A DNA stretch of 64,000 nt from Okamejei kenojei (lineage: Eukaryota). Each line of letters starts with the position of its first letter. The first letter of the stretch is position 1. The notes under the pieces are model-generated. The model saw only the letters and a program-made list of their open reading frames with translations, did not search any database and was not told the origin of the DNA. Where the stretch lies: assembly GCA_035221665.1 (NCBI GenBank), contig CM069157.1, positions 25,358,001 to 25,422,000 on the forward strand, given 5' to 3'. This document shows positions 15,262 to 24,467 of this stretch, one piece after another. The translations under genes were made by a program, and so were the position numbers.

Positions 15262-15612
15262 AATTCCATTTCAAGCAGGGTGCAAGGCCACCAAATTCAA
15301 ATCCATTTTCCCACCATTTCAAGCAGGGTGCATGGCCACCAAATTCAGTGCAGTTTCATATCACTTCAAGCTGGATCCAAGGCCACCAAATTCAGTGCAG
15401 TTTCATACCACTTCAAGCAGGGTGCAAGGCCGCTAAATTTAGTGCAGTTTCATACCACATCAAGCAGGGTGCAAGGCCGCCAAATTCAAGTGCAGTTTCA
15501 TTCCATTTCAAGCAGGGTGCCAGGCCACCACATTCAAATGCAGTTTGATACCATTTCATGCAGGGTGCAAGGCCACCACATTCAAACGCAGTTTCATACA
15601 ATTACAAGCAGG
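15262..15612. repeat. 47-bp minisatellite, ~7-8 copies (TTCAAGCAGGGTGCAAGGCCACCAAATTCAGTGCAGTTTCATACCAC)
   Basis: Period measured at 15318/15365/15412. Confidence 0.92.
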
Positions 15613-15895: not shown

Positions 15896-16700
15896 ACCCA
15901 AAGCACCCAAACCACCATTTGTAGTAGTGCCTTTTAACTTCAACCCAAAGCACCCAAACCACCATTTGCAGTAGTGCCTTTTAACTTCAACCAAAGCACC
16001 CAAACCACCATTTGCAATAGTGCCATTTTAACTTCAACCCAAACCACCCAAACCACCATTTGCAGTAGTGTCTTTTAACTTCAACCCAAACCACCCAAAC
16101 CACCATTTGCAGTAGTGCCTGCTTACTTCAACCCAAAGCACCACACCACCATTTGCAGTAGTGCCTTTTTACTTCAACCCAAAGCACCCAAACCACCATT
16201 TGCAGTAGTGCCTTTTAACTTCAACCCAAAGCACCCAAACCACCATTTGCAGTGGTGCCTTTTTATTTCAACACAAAGTACCCAACCCACCATTTGCAGT
16301 AGTGCCTTTTAACTTCAACCCAAACCACCCAAACCACCATTTGCAGTAGTGCCGTTTTACTTCAACCCAAAGCACCCACACCACCATTTGCAGTAGTGCC
16401 TTTTTACTTCAGCCCAAAGCACCCAAACTACCATTTGCAGCAGTGCCGTTTTACTTCAACCCAAAGCACCCAAACCACCATTTGCAGTGGTGCCTTTTTA
16501 TTTCAACACAAAGTACCCAACCCACCATTTGCAGTAGTGCCTTTTAACTTCAACCCACAGCACCCAAACCACCATTTGCAGTAGTGCCTTTTTATGTCAA
16601 CCCAAAGCACCCAAACCACCATTTGCAATGGTGCCTTTTTACTTCAACCCAAAACTCCCAAACAACCATTTGCAGGCAGTGCCTTTTTACTTCCAACCAA
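15896..16700. repeat. 47-bp minisatellite, ~17 copies (CAACCCAAAGCACCCAAACCACCATTTGCAGTAGTGCCTTTTAACTT)
   Basis: Period measured at 15941/15988; no spacers between units. Confidence 0.95.
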
Positions 16701-22890: not shown

Positions 22891-24020
22891 GAATAAAGTT
22901 CAACTAACTTGTTATTACATGATTTTAGACTATTATTATGATTATGTTTTTTTTAATGTTGACTTTCTCAATATTATTGGTTGACCCATACTCTGCCCCA
23001 GGCACACTTCAGCAATTATCTGGTGAGTGGCACATTGCGAGGCATAATCTGGCACAGGTCAATGGGAGTTGTGATATTTTCACAGGTGGTCTGTCATTGC
23101 AAGGGGACTTGCAGGAATCGGAAGAAATGGCATCTCAGCCAAAGCAACCTGGAACTTGAGGAGCCGCAAGCCACTATCGAACAAGCTTCCCCGGCCAGAA
23201 CACATCTTGCCTGCATTCCTGCATTGCTAATGATGTTTTGATATGATGTATAATCTGGCACAAAACAATGGGAGTTGTGATATTTTCACAGGTGGTCTGT
23301 CACTGCAAGTCAAATGATTCACTTTTAAGGATTCACATCAGCACAGACATGTTCACATGGGCATGCTGTGATGTTCACATTACAGCAATGGTAAGTGTTC
23401 GGTGCAGGTTTATGCTGCAAACGAAACTCGATGAGAGAGTTTTCACTTACACTTGGATGGGTCAGTGGAAGCCAGGCTCTGAGTGATGCTCAGAAGGAAT
23501 GACAGTAATGAAAATGGAAAATTTAAAAAGCTTCTCTCTCTCAAACCTCTTTCCAGTGTTCCAAGGAGGCACAGGAGATTGCAGATGCTGGAATCTGGAG
23601 CAAAAATAAATGTTCCTCTCGCCTCTTTATACTGACTTCTACATGAGATGTAAAAGGGAAAGTGAACTGAAAGATCTCTGCCAATTTGTGAGTCTAGAGT
23701 CTAAAATACTAAACGTAGTTCAATCTCATAGCCAGTACCAGGGACAATGTTGTTGTGTTTTTGAAGTACTAAAGGCATTTTTTTTACAAGCCACAGAAAC
23801 TGTCCAACATTGTTGTAAACAATCTTTAGTGATGCTTGCACCAACTGTGCCCACTTTCACCGATGTGCAAGTGGCCATCTTTCAGATGATGGCAAAATTA
23901 GGTCACACAGCAAGTCCTTGTCATAAGTCATAGCGTCATGAGTGATAGGAGCAGAATTTGGCCATTTGGCCCATCAAGTCCACTTGGACATTCAATCTTG
24001 GCTGATCTATCGCTCCCTCT

Positions 24021-24273
24021 TGTAGATCAACCATATTAATCTCTGTCAATATAACCTTCACCACATATATTATGATTGATACACATTCCACCATGTAATC
24101 CAGTCCGGGATTTGAGTAGGAATGCAGCCACTGACAACAGCCGGCTCGTCCCTTCGTTTGTAGTCTGTGAAATTATGTGATGAGTGTAAAAGTATGTATT
24201 GTTCTCTCTGCATGGATTTTAATAAATGCTTTGTGATTCACCTAATACTTTGTAATGGTTTGATTACAAAACA
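24021..24273 (+). mobile_element. LTR (Gypsy-like), 253 bp
   Basis: TGT...ACA termini, AATAAA at 24221, immediately followed by a tRNA-Leu PBS. Confidence 0.75.
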
Positions 24274-24321
24274 TGTTGTCAGAAGTGGGATTCAAACCCA
24301 CGCCTCCAATTGGAGACCAGA
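24274..24321 (-). pseudogene. tRNA-Leu(CAA-type) 3' half copy (extended PBS)
   Basis: Minus strand reads TCTGGTCTCCAATTGGAGGCGTGGGTTTGAATCCCACTTCTGACA-ACA: variable arm, T arm, acceptor 3' strand and near-CCA of vertebrate tRNA-Leu. Confidence 0.85.
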
Positions 24322-24467
24322 TTGTTCTGGTCATGATTACATAATGGTTTGATTACAAAAACTTCCTAATCCCATTCTCCTGCCTTCTTCCCATAATCTC
24401 TGACACCCGTAATAATCAAGAATTTATTCTTCAAAAAACCTTAGACGAACAATTGTGATCTCATCAG

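Follow-up and report, generated by a model that had tools for sequence, protein, structure and literature searches.

LTRs fused to antisense tRNA-Leu in the skate Okamejei kenojei as probable integrated products of a Gypsy plus strand that overran its primer

The stretch of the Okamejei kenojei genome analyzed here (the window, 64,000 nucleotides, G000:C27:25358001-25422000) carries at 24021-24361 a 253-bp LTR followed by 48 nt of antisense tRNA-Leu(CAA) beginning at the CCA, then by a patch of 20 nt and 19 nt of LTR end. Very probably, a Gypsy reverse transcriptase (RT) copied too far into its tRNA primer while making the plus strand, and the element integrase then likely inserted the product. 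The initial annotation had read the composite in this way, as read-through of A58 followed by a template switch and integration. Its reading is now backed by hundreds of independent parallels in the 2.76 Gb of genome searched, with errors and stops at modification sites, microhomology at the junctions, and target site duplications (TSDs). The search for the same composite elsewhere found no second copy of the exact junction. It revealed instead a genome-wide class of LTR-tRNA fusions which the initial annotation had missed.

All features of the window copy (24016-24366) are given on the forward strand. The LTR (24021-24273) is complete, with TG..CA ends and AATAAA at 24221-24226. The tRNA part (24274-24321) corresponds to positions 76 to 39 of the mature tRNA and confirms the annotated complementarity from the CCA to the anticodon stem: 44/48 bases match the antisense of the host mature tRNA-Leu(CAA) with the gene L066, and 45/48 match once a second isodecoder is allowed. 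The mismatches are at position 74, at a CpG at 56, at 47d, and at 47b, where the base agrees with the second loop variant. The base opposite A58 is correct, the base opposite C47d is wrong, and the tRNA ends at 39, not 38. The CCA complement, which is not encoded by the host gene, heads the tRNA part. The 48-nt match extends far beyond the primer binding site (PBS) of normal family members, which is 12-13 nt (L008, L019, and L030) or 18-19 nt (L016). ARAGORN called no tRNA gene in the window, and Rfam gave no tRNA match at the half tRNA. Elsewhere in the window, self-comparison shows tandem arrays with a period of roughly 47 bp at 15263-15612 and 15896-16700.

The junction patch (24322-24341) is followed by the second copy of the LTR 3' end (24342-24361), whose terminal CA is one base short. 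As annotated, this copy is an exact repeat (19/19 bases) of the 19-nt LTR end, with the two copies at 24253 and 24342. The second LTR end is not preceded by a purine tract. The initial annotation had called for a TSD check against the consensus of the putative CR1 host repeat; an alignment of the flanks with about 25 copies of this repeat that lack the insertion set the element limits at 24021-24361. The left TSD copy (24016-24020) is cctct and the right copy (24362-24366) is cttcc, whereas most empty sites have cctcc. Five bases were duplicated, and each copy has decayed by one transition, leaving left and right alike at only 3/5 bases. The window copy is a dead insertion, an inert fossil without a function of its own.

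A fold-back had also been annotated around the patch. Its arms are present, but the inner five bases of each arm (24317-24321 and 24326-24330) are the two arms of the tRNA anticodon stem itself. Within the patch, 24326-24330 is either the second anticodon-stem arm or a copy of the first arm made by snap-back, and 8 nt from the LTR end follow. In one reading, which is slightly ahead, RT stopped at 39-38, hopped to the 8-nt LTR match, snapped back, and then reached the LTR end. In the other, RT dropped three bases while crossing the loop, stalled at 27, and made a two-base snap-back; six other copies stall at 27, and L124 snaps back by seven bases. Neither reading is strongly favored, and the route through the 20 nt is ambiguous. 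Base-skipping by RT at G37 as the cause of the short loop has no parallel, with a loop of less than 7 nt only in the window copy (1/11 matches). Snap-back was likewise rejected as a common exit: it was scored in 1/128 junctions versus 3/128 in the control, and it is clear only in L124, after position 27.

The LTR is repeated in the genome, as the initial annotation supposed: 40 scored of 931 candidates gave 41 matches with 83-92% identity. Among 22 full LTR copies without a PBS, the flanking 5-mers are alike at 5/5 bases in 6 and at 4/5 or more in 12, and several of the remaining copies are 3' LTRs with a purine tract upstream. A purine run precedes the LTR in L002, L014, L022, L025, and L029. 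The family thus shows the Ty3/Gypsy traits of a TG..CA LTR, a 5-bp TSD, a tRNA PBS after the 5' LTR, and a purine tract before the 3' LTR. The two-LTR member L321 has a perfect 5-bp TSD and an integrase homologous to the Gypsy pol of L088 (E 2e-19), and its RT matches fall in nested LINE-type pieces. Sister families with the same PBS (L088 and L074) have RNase H and then integrase, in keeping with the pol order RT-RNase H-integrase, and the best PDB match of sister-family pol is Ty3 Gag-Pol (E 1.6e-38). For stop-free stretches of the window's own LTR family, Pfam gave no relevant match in two proteins and none in six further stretches. No RT domain of this family was seen in Pfam and homology searches of family stretches.

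The fusions form a large class. A pattern of an LTR end plus extended tRNA gave 32 matches, and the control gave none. The 31-mer of the tRNA 3' end with T opposite A58 has 147 exact genome matches, host genes included. The same 31-mer with a base other than T opposite A58 has 210, versus a single match with a wrong base opposite the control position 54. Near-perfect LTR-tRNA joins number at least 350 in the genome. From 70 of the 147 T-type and 70 of the 210 non-T matches, we kept 138 junction copies, which fall in about 30 LTR clusters (the largest with 48, 23, and 22 copies). Among them, 128 junctions are distinct and 10 are recurrent. The 14-nt LTR-PBS join has 2418 exact matches, compared with 6 in the control. 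Of the first 54 PBS-bearing places listed, all on contig C1, 21 have a tRNA extension of at least 25 nt (interval 26-53%). This figure combines 10/30, 8/21 (one borderline), and 3 places already known, and it refers to the PBS-bearing copies that have survived; it is not a fraction of insertion events, since a PBS is absent from solo LTRs.

Several copies (L103, L004, L121, L276, and L291) have a short layout like the window copy, and in L103 this layout goes with a perfect TSD and an LTR end of 19 nt. Other arrangements were also observed. L075 and L195 are tandems of LTR end, tRNA, LTR end, tRNA, and LTR end, as if after two rounds of read-through and return or a unit duplication. In L125 and L231, the strand is back at the LTR end or the PBS after the tRNA copy and the normal leader follows; an element of this type may have kept its coding region plus the tRNA insert. 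In L177, L187, L190, and L159, the tRNA copy ends at 18-20 nt (the m1A58 stop), yet appears to jump to internal sequence rather than to the leader.

The search for host tRNA-Leu(CAA) genes gave 15 matches, among which are broken genes, one copy without an intron, and a second group of isodecoders. Genes of the primer type lack the CCA, are interrupted after position 37 by an intron of 30-31 nt, and have one of two variable-loop versions with C47d in both; all the readable ones have C at 47d. No intron-bearing gene with another base at 47d was found among 30 matches: nine on C13 read C as listed, and the remaining 21, examined for a variant 47d, are the gene L066 and 20 element copies. An unassembled tRNA gene with another base at 47d is possible. 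The C13 genes form a tandem cluster of intron-bearing tRNA-Leu(CAA) genes (L132-L139 and L141, G000:C13:63172614-63196636); some are broken by repeats, and ARAGORN misreads the cluster as Thr. Other tRNA-Leu genes among L142, L144, and L250 are a CAA isodecoder that differs in its acceptor stem and variable arm, and a gene of CAG type sharing the 3' 36 nt. L250, the second Leu gene with the same 3' end, was rejected as the primer: its variable arm is matched by 0/138 copies, compared with 64/138 for the CAA arm. A generic but narrow pattern without the Leu acceptor, used for other primer tRNAs, gave 12 matches versus 3 in the control, of which 7 are mutated Leu and none is clearly another tRNA.

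The copied tRNA carries errors at specific positions. A hand count of the bases opposite A58 in the 100 listed of the 210 non-T matches gave 70 A, 15 C, and 15 G; m1A is read mostly as T by RT. About 60% of the near-perfect copies are wrong at A58 alone. All three of the largest LTR clusters hold a mixture of bases opposite A58, and position 58 or 47d varies among copies that share a junction, indicating that the A58 error is not a trait of an LTR family. Opposite C47d (n=94), there are 53 A, 7 T, 1 C, and 33 correct bases, so that 61/94 are wrong, compared with a background error of 7/600 that is biased low because the extension score counts 58, 47d, 37, and 26 as neutral. The C47d errors occur with both variable-loop versions. 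In the largest LTR clusters, the C47d error was found in 14/25, 6/19, and 19/22 copies; these differences may be RT-specific signatures or modification levels at different times.

The end points of the tRNA copies are spread over positions 47f-38. Of the 128 distinct junctions, 23 reach position 38, 11 of them ending exactly there, and 1 passes position 34; only one lies clearly beyond G37. No sharp stop was seen at 47d, where the hazard is 0.12 versus 0.03-0.11 nearby. Thirteen copies cross the loop, and all are LTR-joined and spliced (intron absent in 13/13). Opposite G37 they have 7 A, 1 T, and 5 C. Six end at 27, one at 28, and six pass G26, with 3 A, 1 T, and 2 C opposite that base. At L143:1500-1587 (G000:C7:5539731), a complete tRNA-Leu(CAA) with CCA and without an intron lies between an LTR and integrase sequence. 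ARAGORN calls this copy a tRNA gene, and it would be mis-annotated as such.

These features strongly suggest that the fusions record a mature, modified tRNA, with the putative methylations assigned to sites by position from human and zebrafish data. As given in the accessible part of PMC5066629, DM-tRNA-seq of human tRNA-Leu finds errors at m1A58, m3C47d, m1G37, and m2,2G26 and stops at 37 and 26. The same part reports human m3C47d for the CAG isodecoders of tRNA-Leu only, and the available portion of a zebrafish study reports it for Leu-CAG and Ser (bioRxiv 2024.01.30.575011). The calling of modifications from misincorporation is supported by mim-tRNAseq, according to the excerpted text (PMC8062790). 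The skate errors fall at the same four sites (PMC5066629, PMC8062790). The differences are that here a natural RT made the library and the genome keeps it, and that m3C47d in the known data, as far as these excerpts extend, belongs to Leu-CAG and Ser and not to Leu-CAA.

A donor was found among the sampled loci for 90/128 junctions, and a few donors are themselves read-through copies. The mean junction microhomology is 2.1 nt versus 0.44 nt in shuffles (maximum 0.96 in 2000 shuffles), and 50 junctions have at least 2 nt, where 8.5 were expected. The donors lie in the element sense in 67 cases and inverted in 21, and 2 have no assigned sense. Simple transfer to minus-strand DNA does not account for the inverted donors (21/88 oriented). 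In the TSD test, 132/176 copies had a defined LTR start, and the next LTR end lay within the sampled DNA in 20. In these 20 closed elements, the TSD is alike at 5/5 bases in 15 and at 4/5 in 3; the L044 and L089 rows are the same place, and the window row is one base off, with 3/5 by hand. In 4/14 two-LTR elements (L068, L071, L096, and L122), the two LTRs are 10-15% apart and one of them is 94-98% like copies elsewhere. These divergent pairs, from a set of fusion copies alone, may reflect transfer between co-packaged molecules.

From the anatomy, counts, errors, end points, microhomology, and TSDs, we infer the modifications, the polymerase, and the order of steps. The tRNA is antisense and CCA-first, it abuts the LTR end, and the intron is absent in the longer copies. 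RT would pass m1A58 readily, and the methylated C47d as well, often with misinsertion, and would be stopped mostly by m1G37 and rarely by m2,2G26; the errors and end points argue strongly for this step. Because the PBS is only 12-13 nt, any plus strand extended into the tRNA has an unpaired tail, and the overhang would find no partner in the PBS. The tail would be rescued by pairing of 1-5 bases on element DNA, in pol, in gag, or at the LTR end. This rescue is visible as the microhomology statistic and is likely as a mechanism; in the window copy, it would have used the last LTR bases. The 5-bp TSDs suggest that both LTR ends were already present on the linear product when it inserted.

It is very unlikely that the same anatomy arose with a host polymerase copying the tRNA, or with host end repair joining a cDNA on which the primer had been left. 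Microhomology-mediated end joining leaves templated scars. The 20-nt patch resembles such scars, and the inverted donors and the LTR pairs from different subfamilies could reflect repair between cDNAs. However, the perfect 5-bp TSD in 15/20 closed elements places the joining before integration, and the tRNA is always 3' of the 5' LTR in plus-strand order. The stops and errors also fit the behavior of RT in tRNA-seq, as described in the accessible part of PMC5066629.

The initial annotation had offered a tiny TRIM-like family as its alternative. A small non-autonomous family that inherits and spreads half a tRNA is highly improbable for the class, and it is refuted for the window copy, whose junction has one genome match at up to 3 mismatches. 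The second repeat in the window copy is only 19-20 nt and has no purine tract, though the PBS is present. Recurrence at 10/138 sampled junctions speaks for such a family, and read-through products with a PBS, a purine tract, and two LTRs could be re-mobilized; against it, 128/138 junctions are distinct. One junction occurs six times (L106, L119, L120, L197, L266, and L269). It lies on a 10-nt microhomology to inverted pol, and the base opposite A58 varies among its copies, as repeated formation would give. L078 and L248 likewise share a junction, on a 5-nt microhomology to inverted pol sequence, and have different bases opposite A58. The recurrent inverted-pol junction is a hotspot. Two recurrences are segmental duplicates, as their shared flanks show.

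An independent tRNA pseudogene or tRNA-derived SINE beside a solo LTR is scarcely conceivable, with nothing beyond the tRNA match itself in its favor: only 2 of 70 sampled exact matches to the tRNA 3' end are tRNA genes and all the others follow an LTR end, 133/139 sampled tRNA copies begin with the CCA complement and 123 are preceded by CA, and the window composite has no tRNA 5' half, no A-rich tail, and no tRNA-specific TSD, a single duplication enclosing the whole. Neither of the two findings that the initial annotation had named as fatal to its reading was made; the LTR is repeated, and the tRNA match is no independent pseudogene or SINE.

Products of this kind have been met before. Lauermann and Boeke (1994, 1997) reportedly described the tRNA-extended first plus strand of Ty1/Ty3, and Pulsinelli and Temin (1991) are said to have described a primer tRNA captured beside an LTR, with deletion via faulty strand transfer over short homology. 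In the Colicelli-Goff and Pulsinelli-Temin clones, the tRNA was likewise copied beside the LTR, but these are isolated laboratory clones with no population or modification signature. The clone of Colicelli and Goff (1986), with the primer tRNA captured beside the LTR, was a single one as described in the available part of PMC12220202. According to the accessible text of PMC5371799, the tRNA-extended first plus strand of Ty1/Ty3 is a dead end, with no inheritance of the primer sequence. The skate element resembles Ty1/Ty3 as a Gypsy-group element with a short PBS and a first plus strand that enters the tRNA (PMC5371799). In yeast, by the same partial source, this dead-end strand stops after 12 nt and builds up, whereas here it extends 18-87 nt, with rescue by microhomology.

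In the accessible parts of PMC13191261 and PMC8599865, the retroviral plus strand stops before m1A58, and minor products end at 55, 54, 37, or the tRNA 5' end. Only short read-through products are said there to transfer, and DNA extended beyond m1A58 as far as the anticodon loop is described as unable to complete the plus strand or integrate. The skate copies are like the HIV-1/MLV products P1 and P5, in which RT continues beyond m1A58 as far as position 37 or through the entire tRNA (PMC13191261, PMC8599865). In these excerpts, P1 and P5 are minor products, seen in vitro and in cells, that do not integrate, whereas hundreds of skate copies are integrated in the germ line with their misincorporations kept. 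A genomic record of integrated read-through products at scale with a four-site signature was not found in the literature, of which subscription papers were mostly beyond reach. The chemistry is known; in that literature we found neither this scale nor integrated 'dead ends' nor a modification record at four sites.

The hundreds of copies integrated with intact TSDs indicate that, in vivo, these Gypsy RTs leak through the strong stop and that a rescue route exists. Read-through rescue accounts for a large class of internally deleted elements. The fusion copies outnumber the real tRNA-Leu(CAA) genes more than 20-fold and can confound tRNA and tRF read mapping. On balance, we favor a broader view, in which the overextended plus strand of these tRNA-Leu-primed Gypsy families is a routine integration substrate that produced about 40% of the surviving PBS-bearing copies (some 900 insertions). 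The genome would then be a datable germ-line tRNA-seq library that records four methylation sites, the primer isodecoder, and m3C47d on tRNA-Leu(CAA), which is absent from the human and zebrafish data as far as these were accessible. The presence of m3C47d on Leu-CAA is a prediction of this view. Each insertion would be a single-molecule read of a germ-line tRNA, fixed in the genome. Because the insertions can be dated by LTR decay, the history of tRNA modification becomes testable from genome sequence. If this is true, the same mining should allow tRNA modifications to be mapped in species and in past lineages with nothing but DNA.
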